Assembly (NCBI GenBank): GCA_016214655.1
Contig: JACROC010000005.1
Span: 131,078 to 195,077 of the forward strand
Origin: Candidatus Harrisonbacteria bacterium
GTDB lineage: Bacteria; Patescibacteriota; Minisyncoccia; UBA6257; 02-FULL-45-10c
Length of the DNA stretch: 64,000 nt
Direction of reading: 5' to 3'
The notes under the pieces are model-generated. The model did no database searches and was not told the origin of the DNA. It saw only the letters and a program-made list of their open reading frames with translations. Shown one piece after another: positions 2,171 through 17,836 of the stretch. Numbering within the stretch: position 1 is the stretch's first letter; every line of letters starts with the position of its first letter. The position numbers and the translations under genes are program-made.

Positions 2171-3769
2171 TTATTGTCCCGAAAGAACCCACTTCTTCCA
2201 CACCGCCTCTGCAGGTTTATTACGGATACTCGCCCCCAAATCGTTATAACGCACTGGCGTATACTCTGGTCCCATAAAATCATCCCACGCAAAAAATTGG
2301 GTTACCACGCCGGCAAAAGAAGTTCGTCCGGCTAGCGCCTGGAAAAACGCTTCGTAAGCATCAGCTTGCTCTTGCCAATTACGTTTGTATCCAGCTTGTT
2401 CAACCTCGATATAGTCCGCAAATTCCATGCCAGATTTCCCACTCGTGGCACCGTCATAACTCCCTGCTCCAACCTTCAAAAATATCGGCTTTTTGTAAGA
2501 TGCTAGATTCGCCTCAACTTGATTTAAAGCCCCTATCCATGCCTGGCGCATTTCAAGTATTGAGGCGTTAGGTCGTACTCTTATCCCAATAGAATAATAG
2601 AGTCCATCTACTACATCTCTAAATTTGGGATTTCCATCAAAATAAATTTTCCCTTTGTATACCTCGCGAATTGCCGTGATAATTTCTAGCCACTTTGCAT
2701 CAGCATAATCATTCAGCGGATCAACGGTTGGCGGCCTATAATGAGGATTAAGGTCAAAAGCGTCTATGCCAGCATTTTCTGCTCTTTTGGCCCAATCTAC
2801 CAAAACATTTTTCAACTGCCCGAAATACCTATCAAGCCATTCTTTCGTTTTTGACTCATATCTACCAAAATCTGTCCCCGCTCGGTTTTCTGCCGTGTTT
2901 CCTCCAGATCCCCTCGCCGCAAATGGATTAGGAGTAATATTAATATATTTTGTATAGTCAGCCCCCATATTGTAATAAAGCGTAGTTTTAAGTCCGTATT
3001 TTCGAGCCGTTTGCGCAATCATTTCCATTTCATCCGCGGTAATTGCGCCGTCACGCCCATATTTATGCTTCAACTGACCCCAAATAAATGTAGGCATTGG
3101 CGGATCTTCCTGAACAACAAAATTATCTTTATCGCCAAGCATTTCAATAAAACTATAAACACCGATTTCTTTACCACCCAAATCACGAATTCGCGCCATC
3201 GCAGAATCTAAATTCTTTCGAGTATCTTCAAAAAATTGAAAATTATAATTAATTGACCAGGTATCGTACATTTCAACACTGGGGAATAAAGCTTTTGAAA
3301 TAAACGGTATTTTCAGATCGCTCCAAGCTGACACATAATCATATATAGTTTTTTCAAACCATTTTACTTTGAGCTGTTTTTCTTCTGAAACAGAATTTTC
3401 ATTTTTTCGTAAATAGCGATAAACAAGATCTTCGCCAGTCGTAACTGGAACTGGAACTTCAAAAGTCGTACTATTTACTCGCTTCATTTCCGCCGGTTCT
3501 CTACCTTTAATTACTAGAAAGATTTTATCGGCAAGAGGAGTATTATACGGCACCGTTGTCCAAAAACTTAGCTTTGCCGGCTTCCCGACTGGCGCCTTAT
3601 CAAGCTTAGAAAACTCACAGACTTGCCGCGCCTGGGGGATTGGTAAAACCCCGCAGCTTGGCGGCCATACGTCAAAACGGATAGCCAAATACCCGAAAAA
3701 TATAAATATCAAAACCGGGCTAAGAAGAATCAGTGCCCAGCTTAATAAATTTAATAAGATTTTTTTCAT
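2171..3769 (-). CDS. membrane-anchored extracytoplasmic protein, possibly a TIM-barrel glycoside-hydrolase-like enzyme
   Basis: Start moved to MKKILLNLL, which gives an ATGA overlap with the upstream gene. Signal-anchor followed by a ~500-aa soluble domain. The hydrolase call is only a weak impression from alternating beta/alpha patterning. Confidence 0.4.
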   Translation of the reverse strand: MKKILLNLLSWALILLSPVLIFIFFGYLAIRFDVWPPSCGVLPIPQARQVCEFSKLDKAPVGKPAKLSFWTTVPYNTPLADKIFLVIKGREPAEMKRVNSTTFEVPVPVTTGEDLVYRYLRKNENSVSEEKQLKVKWFEKTIYDYVSAWSDLKIPFISKALFPSVEMYDTWSINYNFQFFEDTRKNLDSAMARIRDLGGKEIGVYSFIEMLGDKDNFVVQEDPPMPTFIWGQLKHKYGRDGAITADEMEMIAQTARKYGLKTTLYYNMGADYTKYINITPNPFAARGSGGNTAENRAGTDFGRYESKTKEWLDRYFGQLKNVLVDWAKRAENAGIDAFDLNPHYRPPTVDPLNDYADAKWLEIITAIREVYKGKIYFDGNPKFRDVVDGLYYSIGIRVRPNASILEMRQAWIGALNQVEANLASYKKPIFLKVGAGSYDGATSGKSGMEFADYIEVEQAGYKRNWQEQADAYEAFFQALAGRTSFAGVVTQFFAWDDFMGPEYTPVRYNDLGASIRNKPAEAVWKKWVLSGQ

Positions 3770-4349: not shown

Positions 4350-6596
4350 TTATAATCGATGCCTACGGAGAAGAATAGCGTTGACGGCTACAATAACCGT
4401 TGAAAGCGACATAAAAACTGCGGAAATCGCCGGCTGAAGCAGAATACCTTTTGATACCAAAACTCCGGCCGCCAATGGCAAAGCTATAAGATTATAACCG
4501 GTAGCCCAAAAAAGATTTTGGATCATTTTATTATAGGTCAGACGGGAAAGTTTAATAATTTTTACGATATCCCGGGGGTCATTTCTCACTAGAATAATCC
4601 CTGCCGATTCAATCGCCACATTAGTACCGGCGCCGATTGCTATTCCCAAATCCGCCTGAGTAAGAGCCGGGGCATCATTAATGCCGTCGCCAACCATAGC
4701 AACTTTTAAAGCACGCGATTGAAGCCGCTTAACTCGATCAACCTTATCTTCCGGAAGCACCCTGGCAAAATATTCGTCTATCTGCAATTCATTGGCCACC
4801 CAATGCGCAACTTCTTCGGAATCACCGGTAAGCATTGCCGTTCTTACTCCCAAATTTTTTAATTCTTTGACTGCTTCTTTGGATTCTTCCCGGATTATAT
4901 CCGCCAGCACAATAACGCCAGCCGGCTGATCTCCGATTATTACATAATTAATCGTTTTGCCTTGCCGGGCTAAATCCAAAATCTGAGATTTCAATTCCTC
5001 CGGAATTTCCGCTTTAAACTCTTTTAAAATCTTTTCTCCGCCAACCGCCACTGTAATACTCTTCACCACCCCCCTGACGCCCTTACCCGGCAATCTCTCA
5101 AAATTTTCTACCGGCAATAATTCCACCCCCAATCTCTCAGCTTCTTTGACTATCGCCTTACTGGCAAAATGCTCAGACCGATTATCCACTGAAGCGGCGA
5201 ATTGCAGCAACTGGTATCCGGCAGCCGGAATATCCGTCCTCCTGGGCATAGTAAATTGCGACAAAGCAAATTTAAATATAGGAAACTGCGGATTGGGAAT
5301 TATTTTATCTATGCCATACTCGCCCCTGGTAAGAGTTCCGGTTTTATCAAAAAGCACGACATCAATCTTACGGGCGGCTTCCAGCGCCAGTCTTTGCCGC
5401 ACCAACAATCCATTTTGCGCGGATTTTGTGGTAGATATGGAAGCCACCAGCGGAACAGCGAGGCCCAAAGCATGCGGACAGGCGATTACCAGCACGGCAA
5501 CAAAACGCTCTAAGGCGAAAATCGCTCCCGCCCCGACGAAAATCCAATACCAAAAAGAGGATAGTCCGCTGACAATCGCTATAATAGTCAGATAGAATGC
5601 GGCGCGGTCGGATAAAATTTGAATACGCGATTTAGACGCTTGCGCTTCTTCCACCAATCTCATAACTCCGGATAAAAATGTATTTTCTCCTATTTTAGTT
5701 ATCCGTACCTTGAGGCTGCCGTCGCCATTGATGGTTCCGGCAATTACTTCGTCATTTTTTTTCTTTGCAACCGGCTTGGATTCACCGGTAACCATGGCTT
5801 CATTAATGTCCGAACTTCCATCAATTATCATCCCATCCGCCGGAATTTTTCCGCCAGGCCTGACCAAAACTACATTATCAACCCTCAATTCACTAATAGG
5901 AACGATCTTGGTTTTATCGTTCTTCATTAATATCTCCGCGGTATCCGGCAATAATTTAGAAAGTTCTTTAAGAGCGCGCTGCGCTCCCTGCACTGACCGC
6001 ATTTCTATCCAATGACCCAAAAGCATTATGGTAATCAAGCTTGTCAGCTCCCAGAACAAAGTGCTTGGCTCACCGGTAATGGTACCTAGCCGAATTAAAA
6101 GAATTTGTAAAACACTGTAAATATACGCCGCCCAGATTGCAATGCCAATCAAGGTCATCATCCCGGGAAGGCGTCCCTTAACCTCCAGCCATGCCCCGCG
6201 CGTAAATATCCAGCCGCCATAAAAAAATACAATTGTACTCAGGGCAAGCTGAATATAATCAGAACCGAGAAATGCCGGAGCTTGCCAACCCAAAAATCTT
6301 GCAGGAAGTTCCGAATAAAGCACTACCGGAATAGTCAGGGCTAAGCTAATCCAGAATTTCCGCAAAAACATCTGAGTACTGTGCCCAGCATGTTTGTCCG
6401 CAATAGATTCAGCATCGACGGATTTCCCTTCTTTTCTCTCTGCGGGTACCAGCTTCATTCCGCACTCCGGGCAAAGACCCGGTTTTTGCCGCTGAATCTC
6501 CGGATGCATCGGGCAGGTATAAATTATCCCCTCAGACACCTCTTTATCTTCATTCGCCATCTGATTATTTTTATTTTCCATATTGCAACAATCCAT
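4350..6596 (-). CDS. heavy-metal (copper) translocating P1B-type ATPase
   Basis: DKTGTLT phosphorylation motif, GDGINDAP hinge, TGES actuator motif, and the TM metal site ACPHALGL (CPH). The N-terminus has TCPMHPEIQRQKPGLCPECGMKL, a Cys-rich metal-binding module. Confidence 0.9.
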   Translation of the reverse strand: MDCCNMENKNNQMANEDKEVSEGIIYTCPMHPEIQRQKPGLCPECGMKLVPAERKEGKSVDAESIADKHAGHSTQMFLRKFWISLALTIPVVLYSELPARFLGWQAPAFLGSDYIQLALSTIVFFYGGWIFTRGAWLEVKGRLPGMMTLIGIAIWAAYIYSVLQILLIRLGTITGEPSTLFWELTSLITIMLLGHWIEMRSVQGAQRALKELSKLLPDTAEILMKNDKTKIVPISELRVDNVVLVRPGGKIPADGMIIDGSSDINEAMVTGESKPVAKKKNDEVIAGTINGDGSLKVRITKIGENTFLSGVMRLVEEAQASKSRIQILSDRAAFYLTIIAIVSGLSSFWYWIFVGAGAIFALERFVAVLVIACPHALGLAVPLVASISTTKSAQNGLLVRQRLALEAARKIDVVLFDKTGTLTRGEYGIDKIIPNPQFPIFKFALSQFTMPRRTDIPAAGYQLLQFAASVDNRSEHFASKAIVKEAERLGVELLPVENFERLPGKGVRGVVKSITVAVGGEKILKEFKAEIPEELKSQILDLARQGKTINYVIIGDQPAGVIVLADIIREESKEAVKELKNLGVRTAMLTGDSEEVAHWVANELQIDEYFARVLPEDKVDRVKRLQSRALKVAMVGDGINDAPALTQADLGIAIGAGTNVAIESAGIILVRNDPRDIVKIIKLSRLTYNKMIQNLFWATGYNLIALPLAAGVLVSKGILLQPAISAVFMSLSTVIVAVNAILLRRHRL

Positions 6597-6599
6597 ATA

Positions 6600-6869
6600 T
6601 TATTTTCGCTTTGAAAGTTTATAAATATCTAAAATCTCTTTCACTGACCTTGAAATGCTGCCCGACCTCATCTGATCCGCCGTATGCGTAGCAAGATGAT
6701 GCTCTAAAATCAGGTCCTCAATACCTGAAAGCGCCTGCTTTACCGCGGAAGATTGATGCAAGATCGTAACACAATATGCATCCTCATCGATCATTTTTTG
6801 AAGGCCGCGTATTTGCCCTTCAAGTATTTTTAATCTCCTCATGGCCCTTCTCTTTACCGCTTCTTTCAT
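6600..6869 (-). CDS. csoR: CsoR/RcnR-family metal-sensing repressor
   Basis: RLKILEGQIRGLQKMIDEDAYCVTILHQSSAVKQAL matches the DUF156/CsoR helix pattern with Cys/His ligands. Start moved to MKEAVKRR because the promoter and operator lie inside the longer ORF. Confidence 0.8.
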   Translation of the reverse strand: MKEAVKRRAMRRLKILEGQIRGLQKMIDEDAYCVTILHQSSAVKQALSGIEDLILEHHLATHTADQMRSGSISRSVKEILDIYKLSKRK

Positions 6870-6903
6870 ATTCCCATGATACCCTAGGGGGGTATTACTT
6901 GTC
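6863..6903 (-). promoter_or_regulatory. sigma70-like promoter with an embedded CsoR-operator-like inverted repeat
   Basis: The minus strand reads TTGACA-agtaATACCCccctaGGGTATCAT-gggaat-ATG. That is a -35 TTGACA, an 18-nt spacer and a -10 TATCAT. The GC-rich inverted repeat ATACCC-N5-GGGTAT (6879-6895) overlaps the spacer and the -10. Confidence 0.6.
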
Positions 6904-6908
6904 AAGAC

Positions 6909-8123
6909 CTATTCATATCTTAATGCCTCCGCCGGTTCCATTTGAGCAGCTTGCCGAGCCGGCAACAAACCGGAAACTATACCGGTAATAAAAGTTATAA
7001 TTAAAATAACTAAAAATCCGAAGAGGTCTAAGGCGGCAAATGAAAATAATCCCCGAATACCAAATTGAGCTGCGATTAATCCGACCAAATAAGCTGCAGT
7101 CACACCTAAAATAATACCCAAAATTCCGCCAACTAAACCTATCATCCCGGACTCGATCAAAAAGAGCGACAGAATACTGTCGGAAGATGCGCCAATTGCT
7201 TTCATAACTCCTATTTGCTTTGTCCGTTCCAAAACCGCTGTGTACATCGTATTCATAATGCCGACAGCGCCAACTAATAACGAGATAAGGGCAATAACAA
7301 ACAGAACTGTTTCCACGATAGTTAAAACATCCCCGATAATATTGCCGATTTTCTCCGGAGTCAGCACAGAAAAATCTTCCACTGCTTTTTGCTGGCTTAA
7401 CTGAAATTCAATCTGCTTGGTAACTAAATCCGGATTAACACCCGGTTCAATTTTAATAGCGGCAGAAATAATCCCCGGCCGCGCACCAGTTAATTGACGG
7501 AACATATTTAAAGACGCATATACAACGTTATCCGCCATTTGCTCCCCAATCGGCGAAAGCACGCCCACCACCTTCATTCTTTTAGATTTTAAAATTATTT
7601 CCTCGCCAACTCTCATTTTATTTTTAAAAAGATCTTCCGCAATCCTATGGCCGATTACTACTTCATTGATATCTTCATTTTCCGGCCAGCGACCATCGTG
7701 TAATTTTAATCCCTGCGACTCTTCATAGATTAATTTATATTTACTCCATGGGGCACCGTGAATCATGACGGGTTTTTTCTCGCCTCGAAATTCGCTATTA
7801 ACAACCGCTATATCCATTGGCGCCACAAATCTGACGCCTCTTATATTCGCCAAAGCCAGGATATCCTGATCTCTGAATCTGGCTCCACCCACTAACGTAG
7901 CGACAGATTCTATAGGATTAGTAACCTTACCCGGACGGATAATAATTAAATCAGATCCAAACATTTGCAGGGTCTTAGCGATACTATTTTTAATTCCGGA
8001 ACTTAGGGAAAGTATAATAACTACCAGCATTATTCCGATAATAATGCCCAAAATCGTGAGCCAACCGCGGATCGGGCGGTAACGGATACTTTTTAAGGTT
8101 AAAGATAAAAATTTCTTTAGCAT
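6909..8123 (-). CDS. ABC transporter permease, MacB/FtsX type
   Basis: N-terminal TM, a large periplasmic domain, and a C-terminal FtsX-like three-TM bundle. Adjacent to a MacB-type ATPase and an HlyD adaptor. Confidence 0.85.
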   Translation of the reverse strand: MLKKFLSLTLKSIRYRPIRGWLTILGIIIGIMLVVIILSLSSGIKNSIAKTLQMFGSDLIIIRPGKVTNPIESVATLVGGARFRDQDILALANIRGVRFVAPMDIAVVNSEFRGEKKPVMIHGAPWSKYKLIYEESQGLKLHDGRWPENEDINEVVIGHRIAEDLFKNKMRVGEEIILKSKRMKVVGVLSPIGEQMADNVVYASLNMFRQLTGARPGIISAAIKIEPGVNPDLVTKQIEFQLSQQKAVEDFSVLTPEKIGNIIGDVLTIVETVLFVIALISLLVGAVGIMNTMYTAVLERTKQIGVMKAIGASSDSILSLFLIESGMIGLVGGILGIILGVTAAYLVGLIAAQFGIRGLFSFAALDLFGFLVILIITFITGIVSGLLPARQAAQMEPAEALRYE

Positions 8124-8126
8124 AAA

Positions 8127-8984
8127 CTATTCGGTATAAATCTTTTGATGAACTTGGTGATTTCGCACTAAACGACCATCTTTTAAAGTAATGACTTGAT
8201 CCGCCTTTCCGGCAATATCTGCATCGTGAGTTATGATAATTAAAGTTTTTTTCTGAATTTTATTCAGATTAACCAGCATTTCTAAAATTTTATTGCCAGT
8301 TGCAGAATCCAAATTTCCAGTCGGCTCATCACCTAAAATTATTTTCGGGTCATTAGCCAAGGCCCGAAGCAACGCAGTCCGCTGCTGTTCGCCGCCAGAT
8401 AATTCAAAGGGGCGATGCGTCATCCGCTCCTTCAAGCCAGCCTCCCGGAAATTCGCCTCCAATCTGCTCTCATCAATCTTTGTCCCGGCAAATACCAGCG
8501 GCAAAATCACATTTTCATAAGCGGTCAGCCAGGGTATTAAATTATATTGTTGGAAAACAAAGCCAAAAACACTGGAACGAAGCTCAGCGCGTTCTTCATC
8601 CGAGAACAAAGAAATATCTTTTCCTTTAAAAAAAATTTTACCGGAAGTCGGGCGATCCAAGAGTCCAATCATATTCAAAGCTGTGCTTTTTCCGGAACCG
8701 CTGGCGCCAATGATAGAAACAAAATCTCCTTCCCAAACATGGAGATCCAATCCCTGCAATGCCATAGTTTCCGCCTTGCCGGTATTAAATACCTTCCACA
8801 CCGCACTTAGACGGATCAATGGTTCGCCCAGGAATTTTTCCGGATTTTTTTTAAACCGGCCCCCACATCCCCCGCTGCAAAAATAAACCGATTTCCCCTT
8901 ACGAATAATAGTAATAAGATCGGAAAATTCCGCGAGATCCATTCCGCAAACAGGATCAATTTTTTGATCAGACCATCCGCTCAT
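8127..8984 (-). CDS. ABC transporter ATP-binding protein (MacB/LolD type) with an N-terminal YHS/TRASH metal-binding domain
   Basis: Walker A GASGSGKST, signature LSGGEQQR, Walker B IILGDEPT. The N-terminal 50 aa are DPVCGMDL...YFCSGGCGGRFKKNPEKF. Confidence 0.85.
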   Translation of the reverse strand: MSGWSDQKIDPVCGMDLAEFSDLITIIRKGKSVYFCSGGCGGRFKKNPEKFLGEPLIRLSAVWKVFNTGKAETMALQGLDLHVWEGDFVSIIGASGSGKSTALNMIGLLDRPTSGKIFFKGKDISLFSDEERAELRSSVFGFVFQQYNLIPWLTAYENVILPLVFAGTKIDESRLEANFREAGLKERMTHRPFELSGGEQQRTALLRALANDPKIILGDEPTGNLDSATGNKILEMLVNLNKIQKKTLIIITHDADIAGKADQVITLKDGRLVRNHQVHQKIYTE

Positions 8985-9002: not shown

Positions 9003-10571
9003 TTATTCAGCCGAAACAGCAACCGTCTGTCCGTCTGTAAGTCCCTTGATTACCTCAACCAATTCTCCGTCAGATATTCCGGTTTCTATTTCGCTATCCA
9101 GTAAAACGCTTCCGGTACCCGCAGCTTTCTGTCCCGACGGCAACACTTTGACGAATTTTTTTCCTCCTTTTTCATAAACCGTCAAAGCTGGAATTTTAAT
9201 AACATCATTTTTAAAAGAAGTCATTATTTTAAGATCCGCACTCATGCCATTACGAACCGCTTCATCCGACTTCTCTAAATAAATAATAATCCGGTAATAT
9301 TTATCGCCTTCCTTGATAATTTCTTTCGGTTCAATAGAAAATACCTTGCCCTTAAAATCCTGCCCGGGAAACGCGTCAAACTGAACCGCAACATTATTGC
9401 CGTTAACTTCCCGGATTTTATATATATCCAACTCGGAAACATCGGCTTGAATTTTTTGACCCAAGGCATTCAAGGAAACTGCCGGCTGGCCCGGACGGAA
9501 AATTTCCCCCTCTTCCAGCCAGATCTTATTCAACATCCCCTGGGCCGGAGCAGATAATATTGATTTCCGCACTTTATCTCTTACTGAAGCAATCTGACTT
9601 TCTGCTTCTTTAATTCCAGCCTGAGCCGCGTCAAGATCTTCTTTTCGCGTACCAGATTTCTTAAAAATCAATTCATTCTCAGCGACCGATAAACTAGATT
9701 CGGCGCTCCGTAATTTTTCCTGCGCCGAAGAAAAATTGGTCAAAGCCGTATTGATATTGGCCCGAGCCGTAGATACATCTGATCGCCAGGAATCAATTGC
9801 AGTTTGGGTAAGATTAGCTCCGGGAGTAAGAGTGTTAATCGCGATTGCCGTAATATCCAAAAATTGTTTAGTTTGATTTAAATTCTTATTAGCCGTAAAA
9901 GCATAGTCACTTAAATTACTGCTTTTGTTAAGCAGAGACAGCGAAATATTCCAAGCAACCAGCATTGATTCAATTGCTACCCGCCCAGATTCCAAACTGG
10001 TTTTAAGCTGGCCATCCGATAATGAAAGGTTAACTTGCGGGTTAGAACTTCGCGGATTACTGAACCACTGATCGGTTTTACTTTTAATGGCATCGTCGGA
10101 TTTTGTATAAGCATCCTGAATTTTATCAATCAATCCCTGTTTGGCATCTTCTAATGCGATTTTAGCGCTGGAAACCTTTGCTTCCGAGATGTTTATCTCT
10201 TCCTGAGTTGCGCCCGATAAAAGCTTATTTAAATTCGCTTTTCTTTGATCCAAAACAGCTGATAATTTTTGTATTTCTATCTCCAAGTCGGTGGTTTCCA
10301 ATTTTACCAGCGGGGCACCCTTAGAAACGCTTTGTCCTTCCTTAACATAAATCTTTTCAATAATCCCGGAAAAGGGAAGCTCTAAGTTAAATTCTTTTTG
10401 TGACACGACTTCCCCCCTTACTCTCACCACTTCCTGAATACTTCCGCGTTCAACCGGGAATAACAAAAACGCCGGTTTTTCCTGCCGGAAATATTTCTGG
10501 TATACCCAAAAAGAGACAGTAGCCAACCCCGCAACTACAATTAAAATCAAATAATAAGATAGTTTTTTCAT
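9003..10571 (-). CDS. HlyD/MacA-family periplasmic adaptor with an extended coiled coil
   Basis: Signal-anchor, lipoyl-like motifs (KEGQSVSKGAPLVKL), a long alpha-helical hairpin and C-terminal beta domains. Confidence 0.75.
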   Translation of the reverse strand: MKKLSYYLILIVVAGLATVSFWVYQKYFRQEKPAFLLFPVERGSIQEVVRVRGEVVSQKEFNLELPFSGIIEKIYVKEGQSVSKGAPLVKLETTDLEIEIQKLSAVLDQRKANLNKLLSGATQEEINISEAKVSSAKIALEDAKQGLIDKIQDAYTKSDDAIKSKTDQWFSNPRSSNPQVNLSLSDGQLKTSLESGRVAIESMLVAWNISLSLLNKSSNLSDYAFTANKNLNQTKQFLDITAIAINTLTPGANLTQTAIDSWRSDVSTARANINTALTNFSSAQEKLRSAESSLSVAENELIFKKSGTRKEDLDAAQAGIKEAESQIASVRDKVRKSILSAPAQGMLNKIWLEEGEIFRPGQPAVSLNALGQKIQADVSELDIYKIREVNGNNVAVQFDAFPGQDFKGKVFSIEPKEIIKEGDKYYRIIIYLEKSDEAVRNGMSADLKIMTSFKNDVIKIPALTVYEKGGKKFVKVLPSGQKAAGTGSVLLDSEIETGISDGELVEVIKGLTDGQTVAVSAE

Positions 10572-11275
10572 GTTACTTTAATTCTATACCATTTTAGATG
10601 TTCATACACACTCGGCCAATAAAAGCCAAAGCTTAACGCGAAAATTAATTCTTCTATTGGCACGCCGAAGATTAAAATGCCAGAAATAGCGGACAAATTC
10701 CAAACTTGCTCAACATAACCAGGATAAAGAATGGTCAAGGTTAAAAAATATATGAAATATAAACCAATAAAAATAATAGCGCTGACAAACATCTTATTTT
10801 TAAGATCGGGGCGGCAATACCGGGTAAAAAGACCGGCCCCAACTAATGCCACAGACGCGGAATAAATATGATTCCAATCAGTGAAAATTAAAAGCAAGAC
10901 AAAAATTATCGGCCCAGAAACTAATGCCCAAAAATGATATCGGTGACGGGAATGCCGGCGCTCCTCATCAGACATCGCTTCATGCAAGGTTGGGAAAAAA
11001 TTCTCATAGATAACTACTGCCAATCCGCCTATTCCGAAAGAAAATAAAAAACTTTCAATATCAAATCCTGTTCTCAACGCTAAATCAAATAAAGACGGCG
11101 GGCTCCAATATTCCGGAACAAAAAGCGGCTCAGTTGCGCCAAGAAGCGATGTCCACAAGCTAACCCTCAACATCTCTTTACGGCTTTCTTGATTCCGCAA
11201 AAAAAAGTAGACCGCGAGCCAGATGGCCAAAAGCATTAGACTCCATACCAGCCAAGCGTAGTGCTGATCAAACAT
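10568..11275 (-). CDS. polytopic membrane protein, possibly a lycopene-cyclase-domain family member
   Basis: Seven hydrophobic helices. GVPIEELIFALSF resembles the PxEE motif of CrtYc/Yd-type domains. The family call is weak. Confidence 0.35.
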   Translation of the reverse strand: MFDQHYAWLVWSLMLLAIWLAVYFFLRNQESRKEMLRVSLWTSLLGATEPLFVPEYWSPPSLFDLALRTGFDIESFLFSFGIGGLAVVIYENFFPTLHEAMSDEERRHSRHRYHFWALVSGPIIFVLLLIFTDWNHIYSASVALVGAGLFTRYCRPDLKNKMFVSAIIFIGLYFIYFLTLTILYPGYVEQVWNLSAISGILIFGVPIEELIFALSFGFYWPSVYEHLKWYRIKVT

Positions 11276-11280
11276 AATTT

Positions 11281-11541
11281 TTATAAACGGTTATATAACG
11301 AAGCAAAAAGCCAGCCGCCTAGGTAAGAATAAACTACCGCCTGAATAAGTCCAGCCACAAATCCCCCGAAGGTTACAGCTACATCACCGGCAAACTTATC
11401 TACATTTACCAGATGAACTAACCAACCGAACGATTGCAAAGAAAACTCTGGCCATAAATACACAAATGCGGCGCAAATTAAATAGACAATACCCATTCCT
11501 AATGCAGCGGCTTTCGCAAATTTTGAAACATCTAATTGCAT
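11281..11541 (-). CDS. small membrane protein
   Basis: 86 aa with 2-3 TM helices, in an operon. Confidence 0.4.
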   Translation of the reverse strand: MQLDVSKFAKAAALGMGIVYLICAAFVYLWPEFSLQSFGWLVHLVNVDKFAGDVAVTFGGFVAGLIQAVVYSYLGGWLFASLYNRL

Positions 11542-11557
11542 AAATATTTTTTTAAAA

Positions 11558-12706
11558 TTAATTTAACGACCCTTTATTTAATACTTTTAAGACAAGTGAG
11601 GCGATATAATGGCCGTTAATAAAAGCATCCTCTGTGCCGGCCACATTGTGGTCATTAGCTAAAAATAGATTAGGTTCGGGATTTTCGTTTATATATTCAT
11701 TCCCATGGAAGAAAAGCGCCGGCCGCCACTCGCCCTTAGCAATGATCTCCCGTTCATCGAAATATTTGGCAATATTATCTTTGCTCCCGTAAAAATAGAG
11801 ATAGGTGCCATTTGGTTCACGAGAAATCGCCGCCTCTTCTTCTATCGGAAAAAAATTATACCAGGGAACATTGTATTCTTTTTTAATCCTTCCCCGTAGA
11901 TGGTAATAATTTACATTAATTCCGTCTTTAATTCTTTGCGGCTTTACTAATTGATTAGCAATATTCATCGGCGTGGCAAGGACTAAAATATCACCACCGT
12001 AGGCTTTGCCGGATTTGGTTTCGATTTTAAATTTTTGATTATCCAACCGCCTTACTTTTACAACTGAATCCAAAGTTATTTTATCCCGAAAAGGCGCCGT
12101 AAGCTTTCCAAAATTGAATTTAAAAGACCAGCTCGGGACAATAATTGTGTCCAAAACAGCGAGAAAGATAGCCGCAGAAACTTCCCGCGGATTAGTAAAA
12201 TACGCTGCCCATAAAAATTGCTCCAAATATTCCTTAGTTAGATCTTCCAATCCCTTTTCTTTTATATAATCCGCAGCTTTTTGATGATAGAATTTTTTAA
12301 GATAGGGGTCGGCTTCTATTAATTTTTGATAAGAAACATCCAGCGCTTGCTTGCGAATTTTTTGCACGTGGCTGCGGAATTTAAAAAGTTCCCGCAATAA
12401 TTTTATTCCAGCCGGAATATGCTTCAGCATCCGCAAAGAATAAGCATGATAATGCTCCTGGCCGCGATGAAAATGTGCCTTGGCAAAATGCATCAAATTC
12501 ACCTTTTCAATGTAAGGCAGAATATTATGGCAATCAGCGGTAACGTAATAAGCTCCATAATTCGTCTCGCCATCCGGAGAAGTCTTGATGCGCCCACCGA
12601 TATCTTCGGTAATTAATCTAAAATCGGCGCCATTCTCCTGAAAACGCTTGGCGCATCCGAGACCATTCAATCCGCCGCCAACAATTATGATCTTATAATG
12701 CTCCAT
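11558..12706 (-). CDS. FAD/NAD(P)-binding oxidoreductase (amine-oxidase / desaturase-like)
   Basis: N-terminal Rossmann dinucleotide motif IIIVGGGLNGLGCA...E. Confidence 0.7.
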   Translation of the reverse strand: MEHYKIIIVGGGLNGLGCAKRFQENGADFRLITEDIGGRIKTSPDGETNYGAYYVTADCHNILPYIEKVNLMHFAKAHFHRGQEHYHAYSLRMLKHIPAGIKLLRELFKFRSHVQKIRKQALDVSYQKLIEADPYLKKFYHQKAADYIKEKGLEDLTKEYLEQFLWAAYFTNPREVSAAIFLAVLDTIIVPSWSFKFNFGKLTAPFRDKITLDSVVKVRRLDNQKFKIETKSGKAYGGDILVLATPMNIANQLVKPQRIKDGINVNYYHLRGRIKKEYNVPWYNFFPIEEEAAISREPNGTYLYFYGSKDNIAKYFDEREIIAKGEWRPALFFHGNEYINENPEPNLFLANDHNVAGTEDAFINGHYIASLVLKVLNKGSLN

Positions 12707-12716
12707 AGCTCATTTA

Positions 12717-12971
12717 TTATCTTAAGCCCTCAAACTTTTTCCGAAACTGGTCTTCGGTCGCTCCGCCCATCATAAAAAATTCATCATTAACCAAAATGCC
12801 AGGGCTTGAAAGAATGCCATGCTTCTGAACCAGCGCCTGTCCTTCCGGCGTAACCATATCTATTTCCTCAACAACTAAATTTGAATTTTCTTTTAACAAT
12901 TTTTCTAAGACTTTCTTGACTGCAATGCAATGGGTACACCCCTTTGGCCTGATCAACGTTACTTTAATCAT
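12717..12971 (-). CDS. small thioredoxin/glutaredoxin-like protein
   Basis: 84 aa with the CxxC motif (GCTHC) near the N-terminus, and a Trx-fold length. Confidence 0.7.
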   Translation of the reverse strand: MIKVTLIRPKGCTHCIAVKKVLEKLLKENSNLVVEEIDMVTPEGQALVQKHGILSSPGILVNDEFFMMGGATEDQFRKKFEGLR

Positions 12972-12989
12972 AATTTTTTTATTAATTTA

Positions 12990-13181
12990 TTAGCCGACCT
13001 TATTCTCGGAAGAATCTTCTGTAATATATTTATTGGGATTTTTATCAAACTCTGCCGGACAGCTATCACAACAAAAATAATACTTTTTTCCTTTATATTC
13101 CCGAACCCACCCCATTTTTTCCGCAAACTCCTTGTCCGCAGGAATTTTCATAACCGGACAAATTATCTGGTCTTCCTTCAT
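12990..13181 (-). CDS. YHS/TRASH-domain metal-binding protein
   Basis: CPVMKIP...YYFCCDSCPAEFDKNPNKY. Confidence 0.75.
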   Translation of the reverse strand: MKEDQIICPVMKIPADKEFAEKMGWVREYKGKKYYFCCDSCPAEFDKNPNKYITEDSSENKVG

Positions 13182-13199
13182 AAAAGTTATTTAAATCTA

Positions 13200-13397
13200 T
13201 TAATTTTTGATATTCATTGACCTTTTGTGACGCATCCGCCGCGAAATAATAATTGTAAAAACAATAATAAGCAATGCTGTAATCGGGCCTGCCAATTCAG
13301 CTTCGGCCAAATTAGTTATTTCCTCTTCCGCCTCGCCGAGTTCATGAGCAAACGCGGATATCGGCACTAAAAAAAGATAAGTAATAAAAAATTTCAT
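13200..13397 (-). CDS. small exported/membrane protein
   Basis: Signal peptide (ISAFAHE), an acidic stretch, a TM helix and a basic tail. Confidence 0.4.
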   Translation of the reverse strand: MKFFITYLFLVPISAFAHELGEAEEEITNLAEAELAGPITALLIIVFTIIISRRMRHKRSMNIKN

Positions 13398-13404
13398 TTT
13401 TGTT

Positions 13405-14394
13405 TTATTGATCTAAATTATTATATTCCTTATTATAAGCCGCATCCCATAAAATAATTGCGCTAATGATGGCGGCAAAAACAATCCAGGGAATAATCCC
13501 GCCAATCCCCTCCGGCAAATTCAATGACGCTTCAATGATGGATGATTCGGCAATTTTCGGGAAAATAATTTCCAGCGCCCTATTCCAAGACTGATGAATG
13601 ATTGAGTTTTCGAACCAGGCCATTCCAAATGCGCCATAAGTGAAAATAAACGATCCTAATCCAACCAATGCCCAAGCAACCCAATGTTTAACTTTTATCT
13701 GGTAAGCACTCAGCCAATTCATGGCATTAACTCCCAAAACCGCCAAGACTACAAAAAATAATAGCGGCACCATTCTTCCTAAGCCATGCAACGCGCCCAG
13801 CGATGCGCCAATAACCGGATTTCCCAGCGTAGCGACATAACCAAAAATAATATAAAAAGCCGGGTTAGGACAACCCACTCCGGCGTTACCAAGGAAAAAC
13901 CCCAAAAAGAAACTGCGGATATAATCATTTTTATCCTGTAAAAAAACCGGGAGGATTGTTTGCTTAAAGGGTAATTTGAATTTAATCAGATCAAGTTCTG
14001 AAAGACCGAAAATCAACGCCGCCATCCCGCCGGCAATAAGCATATAACTGATGATCTTATATAACTCAATAAAACCGCCGAGCCAACCCAAGGCCATGCC
14101 ATAGATAGTAAAAGTTAACGTTAGTCCTGCTCCAAAAAGCAATGCCATTAGAATCCCCTTGCCATTTTTTTTAGAAAGCGCAAGTGGCACAATGATAAAT
14201 ATCAATGGGAAAGTGCATGGCAGAAAAATCATGGAAATGCCGGCAAGAAATGCCAGAGACAAGCCGGGAATAAACTGCGGCGAGGTCCAAAGGCTAAAAA
14301 GACCGATTAGAATAATCGAAAAAAGGATAAAGGCAGCAGCCACTAGCCATATTTTTATGCTATTCACTGGCATATTTATAATTATATACCACAT
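13405..14394 (-). CDS. divergent CcdA/DsbD-like thiol-disulfide transporter
   Basis: Polytopic membrane protein with two intramembrane Cys-Pro style motifs (IFLPCTFP and GVGCPNP), as in the DsbD/CcdA core. Its start overlaps the upstream stop by 13 nt. Confidence 0.55.
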   Translation of the reverse strand: MWYIIINMPVNSIKIWLVAAAFILFSIILIGLFSLWTSPQFIPGLSLAFLAGISMIFLPCTFPLIFIIVPLALSKKNGKGILMALLFGAGLTLTFTIYGMALGWLGGFIELYKIISYMLIAGGMAALIFGLSELDLIKFKLPFKQTILPVFLQDKNDYIRSFFLGFFLGNAGVGCPNPAFYIIFGYVATLGNPVIGASLGALHGLGRMVPLLFFVVLAVLGVNAMNWLSAYQIKVKHWVAWALVGLGSFIFTYGAFGMAWFENSIIHQSWNRALEIIFPKIAESSIIEASLNLPEGIGGIIPWIVFAAIISAIILWDAAYNKEYNNLDQ

Positions 14395-14564
14395 CCCCCG
14401 CCGCCTTTTATCGGCGTTGAAATTTCTTTTTGATCAGCCTGCCGAACCCCTTGCGTCTTGGCAGAAACTTGTTTACTGACCGAATAAATCCAGGAAGCAG
14501 AAACCAATAACGCGGCCATGACTATGCTTGCCGCTAAAAGATTATTCGCTGAATTATTCTTCAT
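14382..14564 (-). CDS. 60-aa signal-anchored protein ending in GGGGCGI
   Basis: One N-terminal TM helix, a polar linker and a C-terminal Gly4-Cys-Gly-Ile. Translationally coupled to the CcdA-like gene. Confidence 0.45.
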   Translation of the reverse strand: MKNNSANNLLAASIVMAALLVSASWIYSVSKQVSAKTQGVRQADQKEISTPIKGGGGCGI

Positions 14565-14583
14565 AATTTTTAGTTATTGATTC

Positions 14584-15501
14584 CTATAACCCGCAACCAC
14601 CTCCGCCGCCACCTTGAACCGGCTGTACTTGGGAAAGAATTCTTTGAAAACCAAGTGCGCTGGAAAAATCAGCCCCCAAAACTTCCCGGGGGTTAACAAC
14701 ATCCCAAGCAACCCCTTTTTGTTTAAAGTATTGCGCAATCGTCAAATAAGTATCCGGAAACCAATAAGAATTTACCCGGAGCGCAACCTTATACATCTCG
14801 GCTTCAGAAATTCCCTGCGAAGCCATAAGCTCCAAAAGACCAAGCATGGCCATGCCGTGATTGCAATCGGGAAAATAAGTTGAATTTCCACAGCACGGGC
14901 GATAAACATTTTTTGAAACTCTTTCCACTAAAGCCTTCTGCTCCGTAGTCAGCCGTAAAAATTCATGCGCGGAATAATGGTCCATCGCATCACCGACGGC
15001 CGCTGTCCATCCTCCGGTAGAAGCAAACCTGCCGGCGCCGCCGTAACGCGGATCTGACATCGGCCCCTCCTCCAAAACTTCACTTTTATTGCCGAGCCCC
15101 AAACCCCACAGCAAATTCAAAAGAAAACCTGAATTTTCCGGGGTAATCTTCAATCTTCCATTATCGGCTCCGTAAAGCAGTTTTCTTTCTTCTTCATTTA
15201 TTCCGCCCCGCTGGGAATAAATTTCCTCAAATTTTTCTTGATCCATCACGCCGCTTTCCGCCAGCCGCCTGCCCAGATCTCCCCACACTACTGGCAACTC
15301 TACGCCGTTGGACGGCAAAACCCGCTCCTCAAATTCCGTTTGTGAACCGATTTGCTTTGTAATCGCTGCCGTCTGGCGGCTAACCGGAGCCCCCAAACCA
15401 TTAGTGTATATCCATGCAAAAGCCATAATCACTAATGATAAAATCAGGCTAAACGGTAAATAATTCTTTTGATTTTCTATATTTTGATTTTGTTCTTCCA
15501 T
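14584..15501 (-). CDS. signal-anchored Cys-rich extracytoplasmic protein ending in GGGGGGCGL
   Basis: 305 aa with an N-terminal TM helix, the conserved-looking cluster RPCCGNSTYFPDCNHGMAM, and a C-terminal Gly6-Cys-Gly-Leu. Confidence 0.6.
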   Translation of the reverse strand: MEEQNQNIENQKNYLPFSLILSLVIMAFAWIYTNGLGAPVSRQTAAITKQIGSQTEFEERVLPSNGVELPVVWGDLGRRLAESGVMDQEKFEEIYSQRGGINEEERKLLYGADNGRLKITPENSGFLLNLLWGLGLGNKSEVLEEGPMSDPRYGGAGRFASTGGWTAAVGDAMDHYSAHEFLRLTTEQKALVERVSKNVYRPCCGNSTYFPDCNHGMAMLGLLELMASQGISEAEMYKVALRVNSYWFPDTYLTIAQYFKQKGVAWDVVNPREVLGADFSSALGFQRILSQVQPVQGGGGGGCGL

Positions 15502-15508
15502 AAATTTA

Positions 15509-15898
15509 TTAATTGTTTAATTTACACCTGCTCTCTTTAGCTAAATTCTCCAAGCCCTGTTCTCCGACTAATTTTTTGCCATCCGGAAAAATCCAAGTCG
15601 GGAAAGACTCAATTCCCGCAGCCAAACAACGCTTTGGATCTTTTGGACATTCAACATAAGGCACGAACCGGAAAGAGCGTCCGAATTGTTTTTTCTCGTT
15701 CTGGCAATGCGAACACCAATTCGCTCCATACATTACAATTTTTTCATCCGCTAAACATTGCGCAAATGAATCCATGATAGTATCGGTATTTCTATTATTC
15801 CATGAAATCCACCAAATGGAAAAGGCGGAAACTAAAACTATAATTGAAGCAATATAAGTTTTCTCAAGAAAATTATATTTATTCATCGCAGCAATCAA
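15509..15898 (-). CDS. membrane-anchored thioredoxin-like protein
   Basis: N-terminal TM helix. YGANWCSHCQNEKKQFG is the CxxC Trx-fold motif of the type fused to VKOR/DsbB analogs. Confidence 0.7.
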   Translation of the reverse strand: MIAAMNKYNFLEKTYIASIIVLVSAFSIWWISWNNRNTDTIMDSFAQCLADEKIVMYGANWCSHCQNEKKQFGRSFRFVPYVECPKDPKRCLAAGIESFPTWIFPDGKKLVGEQGLENLAKESRCKLNN

Positions 15899-16376
15899 CC
15901 AATTTATTTACGATATCCTGCAACGTCCATGGCTTCTCTTCCGCCGCGGCCTTTTTAAAACCGGAAACATCTATCAGCTTCAGCCGCAGACCCCAGAACA
16001 TTGAATAAATTTTATAGGCTTGCGAAAAGACTTCTTGCGCCTCGGTTTTTTTATTTTCCGAGTGAAGTTTAGTGCCGACTTCAATAAGTCTCATGGCAGT
16101 TGCAAGTAAATGCTTAGAAATACACCAGGTTTCTCCCTCGTGTTTATCAATCATCTTTCCTAGCAATACCTTTCTGATCGCGCGGGCATCATTTAGCAGA
16201 TCAAAATATTCCGGCTTACCAGTTTTAGCTCCCGTGAAAAAGAAATGTTCTTCCAAACTAATCAGGTTCATGACCGCAATACTCAAATCCTCTTCCGTTG
16301 ATAAATCGATTTGTCCAGATTTCTTCAATGCTTCAATTTTTTTAATCAATGCTTCCAAATTTTTTTGATTATCCAT
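15879..16376 (-). CDS. cytoplasmic helical protein ending in DCCDE
   Basis: 165-aa ORF with no TM helix and a C-terminal vicinal Cys pair. It overlaps the downstream gene by 20 nt. Confidence 0.5.
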   Translation of the reverse strand: MDNQKNLEALIKKIEALKKSGQIDLSTEEDLSIAVMNLISLEEHFFFTGAKTGKPEYFDLLNDARAIRKVLLGKMIDKHEGETWCISKHLLATAMRLIEVGTKLHSENKKTEAQEVFSQAYKIYSMFWGLRLKLIDVSGFKKAAAEEKPWTLQDIVNKLVDCCDE

Positions 16377-16382
16377 ATCAAT

Positions 16383-17210
16383 TTACAAAAAGAAAATTAA
16401 TAAACCCAAGACGACCATTGCTATGCCTCCCCAAAGACGCATATTATGGGTTTCTGCCTTTTTCCATTCCTGCACCTTAGCCAAAAGCAATTGATTGCTT
16501 GCAATCAGCAGAATGATAACTAATGGCAAAATGAAAATCGCGTTATATAGAAGGAGATAGCCAAGACCGCTGATAAATGTCGCTTTATCATGCAGCAAAC
16601 CAAGAATCATCAGATACGGTCCTCCAGTACAAGGAAACTCGCATAACCCGACTAAAACACCAAGTAAAAAGGCCGTTGGCGAAGACGCCTTTTCCATTAA
16701 TTCTGCCATTTTATGATGCGCCGCCTGCGGTATCCGCAATTTGACCGGAAAAGCCGGGAAAAACTCATTCATCAGATTAATCAATCCTAAAACCACCAGC
16801 AATCCCGCCCCTACTTTTGCCATAAAATGCGGGGTGTTAAAAAGATGAAGAACCTGCAAAATCCCGAGGCCGATCAAGATATAAACCAGAAAAATGCCGA
16901 ATATGTACATTCCGCCAATCTTAAGGATACCCGACCGCAGTTTACCGATACTAAGCAAAAAAGCGATCGTTAAAATTAGAATCGAAAAAGCGCAGGGATT
17001 AATACTATCTAGCAAGGAAGACACCAATACCAGAGGCAGCAGCCATTTCCCGCCATTGCTGAAACTCCACAAAAATGCCGTGCCGGCTCCGGTAAAACGG
17101 AAAAAGAAAAATAATCCGGCCAGCAAAATAACCGCCCCAACCAAAAATCCTAATTTTGATTTTGCATTATTGCCGCTTTGATTATTAAGCGGCTCATGAC
17201 AATTAGACAT
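16383..17210 (-). CDS. ccdA: cytochrome c biogenesis-type thiol-disulfide transporter CcdA
   Basis: Six-TM protein with DSINPCAF and CEFPCTGGPY motifs. Confidence 0.8.
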   Translation of the reverse strand: MSNCHEPLNNQSGNNAKSKLGFLVGAVILLAGLFFFFRFTGAGTAFLWSFSNGGKWLLPLVLVSSLLDSINPCAFSILILTIAFLLSIGKLRSGILKIGGMYIFGIFLVYILIGLGILQVLHLFNTPHFMAKVGAGLLVVLGLINLMNEFFPAFPVKLRIPQAAHHKMAELMEKASSPTAFLLGVLVGLCEFPCTGGPYLMILGLLHDKATFISGLGYLLLYNAIFILPLVIILLIASNQLLLAKVQEWKKAETHNMRLWGGIAMVVLGLLIFFL

Positions 17211-17231
17211 AGTTTTCGCAAAGATTAATTT

Positions 17232-17744
17232 CTACGGCCGGACCACTGCCGTAAATCCCAATTCAACTTCTCCGGAATCGGTTTCTACATAAACCGAGCG
17301 CTGGATCGGACCCACGCCAGCCGGACCATGCGCCGCCGGATCAAAAGTGGCTTCAATTCTTACTTCCTCGTCTCCGGAAATAACTTGGTTAATACGCGGC
17401 ACAACTCCATGCCCGGGCATGCCGAACGGCCCGCGAGCCTTCCCATCCTTCAGCATCAGCGTCGCCGTGGTGCACATGCAGGAAGTATAAATTTTATTGA
17501 TCGTCAGCGGATTCTCCGATCTATTTTTAAGAGTGAATACCTTGCTCACTTTGCCATCAGCCATAGAAATATCGCCAAAATCAAAATTAGACTCATCAGC
17601 AACTAATTTATTTTCCGAAACCGATGACACGGATGCCGTCTGAAGATTCTTGCTTGAAGAATCTGAAGATGCCAACCAAATAATTCCGCCAAAAACCAAG
17701 AAAGTAACGAGGGTGATTATAATGACTTCTTTGTAATGTTGCAT
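17232..17744 (-). CDS. DUF1573-domain exported protein
   Basis: Start moved to MQHYKEV. FDFGDI...FTLKNRSENPLTINKIYTSCMCTTA matches the DUF1573 pattern. Confidence 0.7.
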   Translation of the reverse strand: MQHYKEVIIITLVTFLVFGGIIWLASSDSSSKNLQTASVSSVSENKLVADESNFDFGDISMADGKVSKVFTLKNRSENPLTINKIYTSCMCTTATLMLKDGKARGPFGMPGHGVVPRINQVISGDEEVRIEATFDPAAHGPAGVGPIQRSVYVETDSGEVELGFTAVVRP

Positions 17745-17836
17745 AATAACTAAAAAATTAATTTTAAAAAAATAAAATGCCCCGTAAAAGGGGTTAGAGG
17801 ACGGCAAAACCGGAAGCTGTCGACAAACAACTCCGA

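Follow-up and report, generated by a model that had tools for sequence, protein, structure and literature searches.

The window analysed here, a 64,000-nt stretch of Candidatus Harrisonbacteria DNA, carries on its minus strand (8127..8984; 285 amino acids plus stop) the gene for the ATPase subunit of a type VII (MacB-like) ATP-binding cassette (ABC) system, as seen from the ORF list and Pfam. Its product, here called YHS-NBD, is a YHS module fused to a complete MacB/LolD-type nucleotide-binding domain (NBD), and our analysis confirmed this architecture. From comparisons of sequence and gene context we tentatively propose, with confidence a little short of even, that the YHS module is a sensor of a thiophilic metal, probably Cu(I), and would regulate the type VII ABC pump of a copper and envelope-thiol defence island.

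The profile searches assigned both halves of the protein. The N-terminal segment, which an earlier note on this DNA had read as a YHS/TRASH-type metal-binding domain, matched Pfam YHS (PF04945) on residues 9-53 (8826..8960, minus strand) with 35.6 bits, above the gathering cut-off of 30.3 (E 9e-9), and the match spanned profile positions 2-45 of 47; we regard it as a putative metal-binding module. Residues 56-285 (8130..8819, minus strand) were assigned to the ABC NBD by Pfam, NCBIfam and Foldseek. Here ABC_tran matched residues 76-222 with 105 bits, and the top NCBIfam models on residues 55-281 were LolD, MacB, DarD, YbbA and FtsE. All of these models scored under their equivalog cut-offs (228 vs 308 for TIGR02211 LolD, 208 vs 966 for MacB and 195 vs 336 for YbbA), and hence we assign YHS-NBD to MacB/LolD at the family level, as an orthologue of none of them. 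The catalytic motifs are complete, with Walker A at residues 93-100, the Q-loop at 145, LSGG at 195, Walker B at D219-E220 and the H-loop at H253.

The structure of YHS-NBD was modelled with AlphaFold2 from an alignment of 109 sequences (mean pLDDT 91.5, pTM 0.88; 90-96 within the YHS part). When the whole model was submitted to Foldseek, only NBDs were returned, namely MJ0796, MacB, Spr0694, LolD, YbbA, BceA, HrtA and FtsE. Thus the proposed fusion to a MacB/LolD-like NBD is borne out by the ABC_tran match and by LolD and MacB among the top NCBIfam and Foldseek matches. The best five (MJ0796, MacB, Spr0694, LolD and YbbA) were 40-47% identical to YHS-NBD over ~224 aligned columns each; since the alignments cover only this length, a comparable N-terminal domain is absent from the solved type VII NBDs. 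No C-terminal regulatory domain of the MetN/ModC/MalK type was found in YHS-NBD, whose chain ends ~30 residues past the H-loop; the added domain is N-terminal and has the YHS fold.

The start of the gene decides whether the YHS module is translated in full. In-frame alternative starts are present at codons 15 (ATG), 56 (TTG) and 62 (GTG), and no Shine-Dalgarno sequence precedes codon 1, 15, 56 or 62. The NCBI call of the identical protein from Candidatus Harrisonbacteria (P0001) is 271 amino acids long, begins at Met15 and loses two of the ligand residues, and public calls within the family often begin at the same conserved methionine of the DPVCGM motif (P0001, P0009, P0011, P0053, P0055, P0087 and P0103; in the window, the stretch concerned is 8942..8984). 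The residues upstream of Met15 are nevertheless conserved as protein: in the alignment of 109 homologues, D10 was found in 107/107, V12 in 101, C13 in 108/108 and G14 in 107. Homologues with apparently truncated calls have the motif in frame upstream, with an ATG right past the adaptor stop codon; in locus L087, where the homologue was called from an internal methionine, the in-frame sequence MKQKNIQSKIDPVCGM directly follows that stop codon. Because D10 and C13 are conserved, because the upstream frame of L087 carries an ATG, and because Met15 sits inside the YHS motif, we judge from these alignments that the long, 285-amino acid start is the right one and that the NCBI call of 271 amino acids is truncated. 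Neither of the two outcomes that the earlier note had named against its reading occurred: the profile search assigns YHS, and the true start does not lie further downstream. The position of Met15 within DPVCGM would explain how gene callers are misled, and the truncated public calls hide the YHS domain of this family from domain scans.

The conservation of the module points to a metal site. Across the family the invariant positions are D10, C13, M15 (108/109), F35, C36, C40, F44, P48, F51 and P55. Leucine replaces Met15 (DPVCGL) in a single member, that of locus L003 (P0100, 8001..8879). The TRASH signature is C-x2-C-x19-22-C-x3-C, and neither this four-cysteine signature nor a match to a TRASH-type Pfam model was found at the YHS-NBD N-terminus. 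The pattern of the family is D10-x2-C13-x22-C36-x3-C40, with these four residues invariant in 107-109/109 members. We take D10, C13, C36 and C40 as putative ligands because their spacing fits the YHS ligand set D-x2-C...C-x3-C, in which the first cysteine of the TRASH signature is commonly an aspartate (PMC4626032). The module appears to be held closely to the motor: in the AlphaFold2 model ~4 residues separate the last YHS helix from NBD beta-1, and no indels between C40 and P55 were seen in the family alignments. Outside the family, the closest YHS domains are mostly the N-termini of CopA-like ATPases (38-52% identity).

The earlier note had presented the fusion as an unusual architecture. 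This did not hold: a search of 5.8 billion proteins recovered it in at least 120 clusters at 90% identity, 62-83% identical to YHS-NBD, nearly all with precomputed PF04945 and PF00005 assignments, and the JGI annotation of some already reads 'ABC-type lipoprotein export system ATPase subunit/YHS domain-containing protein'. In the few clusters that lack the YHS flag, the call is start-truncated or the score is sub-threshold, and the motif is still present. All named organisms with the fusion are Patescibacteria (Harrisonbacteria, Nealsonbacteria, Magasanikbacteria, Yonathbacteria and Paceibacterota). The best YHS-less NBDs in 185,579 species genomes were only 40-52% identical over residues 56-275, and therefore the fusion marks a distinct, large clade in which it is fixed. 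Searched with a short query, the same 5.8 billion proteins yielded no candidates, and a profile of the N-terminal part alone matched nothing but YHS proteins of small size and some fragments. One locus considered as a second, independent YHS-ABC fusion (L119) was rejected, as its gene for a secreted YHS protein of 98 amino acids is separate from the unrelated ABC ATPase gene that begins 147 nt further on. In a wider survey the YHS profile, run against 1.84 billion representatives, found a YHS-like domain in 16,683 clusters at 50% identity; the best 150 scorers (P0121-P0270, e.g., P0202) consist of 2-9 tandem YHS repeats and reach 2065 amino acids. Full-text searches, whose coverage leaves out most subscription journals, found no literature on a YHS-ABC or YHS-MacB fusion; what came nearest were a YHS adenylyl cyclase and FetA of Campylobacter, both discussed below. 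YHS-NBD would thus pair a sensor module and a motor that are each known, while their combination and its context were not found described.

In the window, the neighbouring genes of YHS-NBD run in the same direction, with gaps of 18 nt between adaptor and YHS-NBD, 3 nt between YHS-NBD and permease, 36 nt between permease and csoR, and 3 nt between csoR and the copper ATPase gene. The adaptor (9003..10571, minus strand) is a HlyD/YknX-type membrane-fusion protein (MFP) of 522 amino acids (HlyD_D23 and HlyD_3; TIGR01730 at 133.7 bits vs a cut-off of 94.9), with an N-terminal hydrophobic stretch that resembles a membrane anchor. The permease (6909..8123, minus strand; 404 amino acids) combines MacB_PCD (PF12704, 106 bits) with FtsX (PF02687, 63 bits). 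The following genes code for a CsoR/RcnR-family repressor of 90 amino acids (6600..6872, minus strand, ATG at 6872; PF02583, 80 bits) and for a P1B-type copper ATPase of 748 amino acids (4350..6596, minus strand; TIGR01511 at 544 bits vs a cut-off of 397, TIGR01525 at 561 bits, PF19335). The N-terminus of this ATPase is an HMBD (PF19335), neither HMA nor YHS, and its transmembrane motif, at residue 379, is CPH (CopB-like), not CPC. The gene positions agree with the arrangement that the earlier note had described, in which an FtsX-type permease and a 522-amino acid HlyD adaptor share an operon with the ATPase just upstream of csoR and the copper ATPase. Its term 'tripartite' stands as far as the HlyD/MFP adaptor is concerned, with TIGR01730 above the cut-off; as a label for the whole system it is doubtful, since the scan of ORFs in 2-26 kb of the window revealed no OEP gene for an outer-membrane factor. 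Patescibacteria are regarded as lacking an outer membrane and the source lineage as monoderm, and we therefore regard the Gram-positive Spr0693-0695/YknXYZ type as the closest solved analogue.

The link to metal homeostasis was examined in related loci, obtained from three contig look-ups and from 25 fusion loci of a metagenome scan with the N-terminal alignment, and searched by tblastn with the proteins of the window. The controls were loci around MacB/LolD-type NBDs that lack YHS; of the 80 found with the full-length alignment, 69 with a length of 9 kb or more were used. The order adaptor - YHS-NBD - permease was present in every related locus with enough DNA, and the adaptors matched the YknX_C, Beta-barrel_YknX and CzcB_C models. 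A CopA-like P1B ATPase gene was located within 10 kb in 11/18 informative loci (the window, L001, L087, L089, L090, L091, L092, L094, L095, L098 and L105) and in 0/69 controls (Fisher p = 1e-9), a comparison limited by relatedness among the fusion loci and by controls that belong to other phyla. A CsoR-family gene was found in seven of the YHS-ABC loci, and no CopA-like or CsoR-like gene in the 69 control loci. The orders seen were csoR-...-cassette-copA, csoR-copA-cassette and divergent arrangements; because the order varies between loci, we favour selection over shared ancestry of one arrangement. A further 55 loci detected with the same YHS pattern lack the fusion, and in most of them a YHS domain stands directly before a CopA-like ATPase of the same orientation. 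The search for further YHS-ABC fusions and their contexts that the earlier note had proposed thus uncovered a clade-wide fusion linked to metal homeostasis through the copper ATPase neighbours and CsoR-type operators. In L095 (2516..4966) and L101 (2936..5384), two tandem FtsX-type permease genes, ~60% identical to the permease of the window, follow YHS-NBD; by analogy with LolC/LolE, this suggests a heterodimeric permease.

In some genomes, operator-like sequences tie the cassette to a presumed CsoR regulon. In the window, 36 nt separate the end of the permease gene from the csoR ATG at 6872, and they contain a sigma-70-like promoter for csoR-copA (TTGACA-18-TATCAT; 6876..6905, minus strand) with 11/12 positions matched, the best score of any promoter-like site in 13 kb. 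The TTG at 6905, given in the ORF list as the csoR start, is its -35 box. The promoter is overlapped by a putative CsoR-type operator at 6879-6895 (minus strand), the perfect palindrome ATACCCCCCTAGGGTAT, which is unique in the 64-kb window against 0.05-0.10 chance matches expected. With its own promoter and palindrome, csoR-copA would therefore be an auto-regulated unit in the window. This splits the operon placement next to csoR and the copper ATPase that the earlier note had advanced: the adjacency stands, and a shared regulon is not demonstrable here, because csoR-copA is served by a separate promoter and operator. In L001 and L105, a CsoR-type palindrome precedes a csoR gene that heads the array csoR-...-hlyD-yhsABC-ftsX-copA, and one of the three boxes of L098 overlaps a TGcTATAAT promoter that reads into the adaptor (hlyD) gene. 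No strict CsoR-type box was found in L087, L090-L092, L094 or L095. The cassette would thus belong to a presumed CsoR regulon in some genomes and be merely adjacent in the genome of the window, where adjacency without a box of its own is compatible with control at the protein level.

The surroundings of the cassette include genes for thiol chemistry and a second YHS protein. The region 12717..17807 (minus strand) of the window and 469..6457 of L001 share DUF1573, SfLAP-like, DsbD/CcdA-like and thioredoxin- or peroxiredoxin-like genes; these thiol-redox genes and genes of unknown function form, together with the cassette, a 13-kb co-directional array with gaps mostly below 25 nt. The same array of the window encodes a stand-alone YHS protein of 63 amino acids (12990..13181, minus strand; PF04945, 41.4 bits), homologues of which adjoin the cassette in L092, and another YHS match is present in L087. 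This small protein is a possible metal donor or chaperone for the fused YHS module. The permease contributes a family-specific patch in its periplasmic domain, made up of GEKKxxM-x-H-A-x-x-W and IGEQM-x-DN (residues 103, 120, 122 and 196). H122 was found in 20/21 family members vs 1/39 YHS-less control permeases, M120 in 15/21 vs 1/38, and M103 and M196 in 15/21 family members each. The patch could be an extracytoplasmic metal or substrate site, and we treat it as a lead, not as evidence.

These results suggest the following mechanism. Residues 1-55 would form a metal-binding knuckle of the YHS/TRASH type, whose ligands are an Asp-Cys3 set accompanied by a conserved methionine, and the indel-free linker of 4 residues would hold it to NBD beta-1, ~10 residues before the invariant F66, which, by alignment with MJ0796, is probably the A-loop aromatic. 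In the cytoplasm the module would bind a thiophilic metal, most likely Cu(I), which may come from the small stand-alone YHS protein of the island (12990..13181). NBDs need to dimerise for ATP hydrolysis, and metal binding would tune ATP binding or NBD dimerisation and closure, so that the pump follows the cytoplasmic metal load. By mechanotransmission, the pump would act on material at the outer face, either copper or copper-bound or copper-damaged envelope material, and drive it out by way of the adaptor tube, a task complementary to that of the P-type ATPase, which clears the cytoplasm. This mechanism is proposed because the N-terminal metal-binding domains of P1B ATPases and the YHS domain of a mycobacterial cyclase give precedent: in Mycobacterium phlei, a YHS domain joined through an 8-residue linker to a dimerisation-dependent adenylyl cyclase makes the enzyme Cu-activated (PMC4626032). 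For the motor, PMC6172431 describes MacB-type systems as mechanotransmitters, in which NBD closure drives movement of the periplasmic domain and no transmembrane substrate path is present. The identity of the metal, the direction of its effect (activation or inhibition) and the transported substrate are all matters that we infer. A more specific version, a Cu(I)/Ag envelope-defence pump of monoderm Patescibacteria whose type VII motor is switched on by Cu(I) bound to the fused YHS module, is possible, but we consider it less likely than not.

Several observations weigh against a copper sensor. A PDB sequence search with the YHS domain returned phenol hydroxylase PHN first (E 2e-6) and L24e next, so that its nearest solved relatives, monooxygenase alpha subunits and ribosomal L24e, are not sensors, and the YHS domain of toluene-4-hydroxylase was without metal in the crystal (PMC4626032). 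No copper gene was within reach in 7/18 informative loci (L003, L005, L097, L099, L101, L108 and L110); the neighbours are znuABC and ATP synthase genes in L003 and uvrAB in L005. The enrichment is measured against loci from outside Patescibacteria. The adaptor of the window contains 0 His, 0 Cys and 5 Met, and no CusB-like metal site is evident in it. The only CsoR-type box of the window lies downstream of the cassette, before csoR; even with relaxed patterns, no second box was found in the window before the cassette or its upstream co-directional array. Finally, the CsoR-family neighbours of the cassette (in the window, L001, L087, L091, L092, L098 and L105) all share the arrangement Cys...His-x3-His. 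The fingerprint of proven Cu(I) CsoR proteins is x-C-H-C, and C-H-H is nearer to RcnR-type sensors. With x-C-H-H instead of x-C-H-C the identity of the metal is insecure, and another thiophilic or borderline ion could be meant.

The main rival is a structural zinc ribbon, that is, a permanent Zn(II) in the Asp-Cys3 site that serves folding, pairing of the motor subunits or docking of a partner, without any sensing; we give it a real but clearly minor chance. In fold and sequence the module is nearest to the L24e TRASH domain and to the C-terminal domain found in alpha subunits of soluble diiron monooxygenases, where the metal is structural or permanent, and L24e binds Cd through its Cys residues (PMC4626032). 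The rigid attachment of the module in the AlphaFold2 model, the housekeeping or non-copper contexts of 7/18 loci and the invariance of the fusion across the clade, as expected of an integral structural element, are all in keeping with such a ribbon. It leaves unexplained, however, the enrichment of csoR and copA neighbours (11/18 vs 0/69) and the CsoR-type operators before the cassette, and the closest YHS domains outside the family belong to copper ATPases. Moreover, a methionine next to the cysteine and an aspartate as first ligand, as in Met15 by Cys13 and D10, are typical of the Cu-associated YHS subtype.

A thiol or zinc-redox switch, in which the three cysteines would report oxidative or disulfide stress and couple the pump to the extracytoplasmic thiol-repair genes, appears improbable. 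The three cysteines are invariant, and in the window and L001 the cassette stands among DsbD/CcdA-, thioredoxin- and peroxiredoxin-like genes; copper, however, mis-oxidises thiols, and thiol-repair neighbours are equally expected if the module senses copper. The conserved Asp and Met suit metal ligation better than disulfide chemistry, and no precedent for a YHS redox switch was found in the literature searched. We also deem it quite unlikely that the module is a substrate-loading or chaperone site, which would capture cytoplasmic Cu(I) and pass it to the permease for export or to the P-type ATPase. The copper ATPase and the stand-alone YHS protein nearby, and the His/Met patch of the permease, would suit this role; against it, the membrane-distal N-terminal position of YHS and the linker of 4 residues make a poor geometry for hand-over, the adaptor is without metal-binding residues, and PMC6172431 describes MacB-type permeases without a transmembrane substrate path. 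The weakest alternative, that the true start is Met15 or Leu56 and the YHS-like stretch an untranslated leader, which the public calls from Met15 and the lack of Shine-Dalgarno sequences would allow, is excluded by the conservation of D10 and C13, by the in-frame upstream motifs of the shortened homologues and by a YHS profile match that requires residues 9-53, and we attach hardly any probability to it.

Further genes of the island deserve mention in their own right. Between the thiol-redox genes and the adaptor (10568..12706, minus strand) the window encodes a lycopene-cyclase-domain membrane protein, a DUF5676 two-transmembrane protein and a FAD amine-oxidase/CrtI-like protein, the lycopene-cyclase-domain gene overlapping the adaptor start by 4 nt. 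These three genes are absent from the matching position in L001, and a carotenoid-type function would be unusual in a Patescibacteria genome. A protein of 305 amino acids without Pfam match (14584..15501, minus strand) and the product of an adjoining ORF of 60 amino acids (14382..14564, minus strand) both end in Gly4-6-Cys-Gly-(Leu/Ile), and the larger one additionally carries a CCG...C.H cluster. ORFs of ~320 amino acids with the same tail (GGGGCGV, GGGGGCGV) occur in the copper islands of L090 (ending at 5442) and L105 (ending at 3235), in the latter directly upstream of csoR.

Type VII ABC systems (MacB, LolCDE, FtsEX, YbbAP and BceAB) are under intense structural study, and we know of none with a sensor on its motor or with a tie to copper. 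If the sensor role of the YHS module is true, the pump would be the first case in which a metal-binding domain, placed N-terminally on the ATPase, gates an ABC transporter at the post-translational level, and would introduce a new regulatory principle for ABC proteins, an N-terminal metal switch beside the ATP site. The pump would be an ABC-based functional counterpart of CusCBA, and would offer wall-bounded bacteria without an outer membrane, Patescibacteria among them, a way to clear copper or copper-damaged material from their outer face. To our knowledge, experimental evidence for sensing by YHS is available for one adenylyl cyclase only, and the fusion would provide a second tractable test system for this poorly understood domain.

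Among known systems, the closest to the cassette are Spr0693-0694-0695 of Streptococcus pneumoniae (PDB 5xu1) and YknXYZ of Bacillus, which likewise have a separate NBD, a MacB_PCD/FtsX permease and a membrane-anchored HlyD/YknX-type adaptor; the NBD of 5xu1 is 44-45% identical to that of YHS-NBD and structurally superposable. Their NBDs are without an N-terminal extension, and they are known to act on peptides and antibiotics and have no known link to metals, whereas the cassette described here occurs in copper islands. With MacAB-TolC, LolCDE and YbbAP of Escherichia coli it shares the NBD family and fold and the organisation of the permease domains. MacB unites NBD and permease in one chain and has TolC as its partner, whereas here the two are encoded by separate genes and no outer-membrane factor was found in the part of the window scanned; and unlike LolD, MacB and YbbA, YHS-NBD misses their equivalog cut-offs and carries the YHS module. 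The concept of a ligand sensor fused to the ATPase subunit is shared with MetNI, ModBC and MalK, and MetN is among the structural matches of the NBD. The regulatory domains of these importers are C-terminal and act by trans-inhibition; the extra domain of YHS-NBD is N-terminal, has a different fold and belongs to an exporter-like type VII system.

As in P1B copper ATPases, including YHS-CopA, a cytoplasmic metal-binding module sits on the motor side of an exporter. The motors differ (P-type vs ABC), and in the P-type pumps the metal is also the substrate and crosses through the same protein. The pairing of an adaptor-containing envelope pump with a copper P-type ATPase that it would complement, both encoded together, recalls CusCFBA and CopA; unlike the cassette, Cus is driven by an RND (resistance-nodulation-division) pump and its adaptor has a Met metal site, compared with the His- and Cys-free adaptor here. 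FetA-FetBCD of Campylobacter jejuni is another case of a YHS protein encoded with an ABC transporter, but FetA is a separate membrane protein with a YHS domain predicted to be periplasmic, and serves iron uptake (PMC10783030). The YHS-cyclase of M. phlei differs from YHS-NBD in its C-terminal YHS domain, in its cyclase output and in that Cu2+ was tested in vitro, but it shares with YHS-NBD the D-x2-C...C-x3-C ligand set, a very short linker and an enzyme that depends on dimerisation, and in the cyclase copper switches the enzyme on only when the YHS domain is present (PMC4626032).

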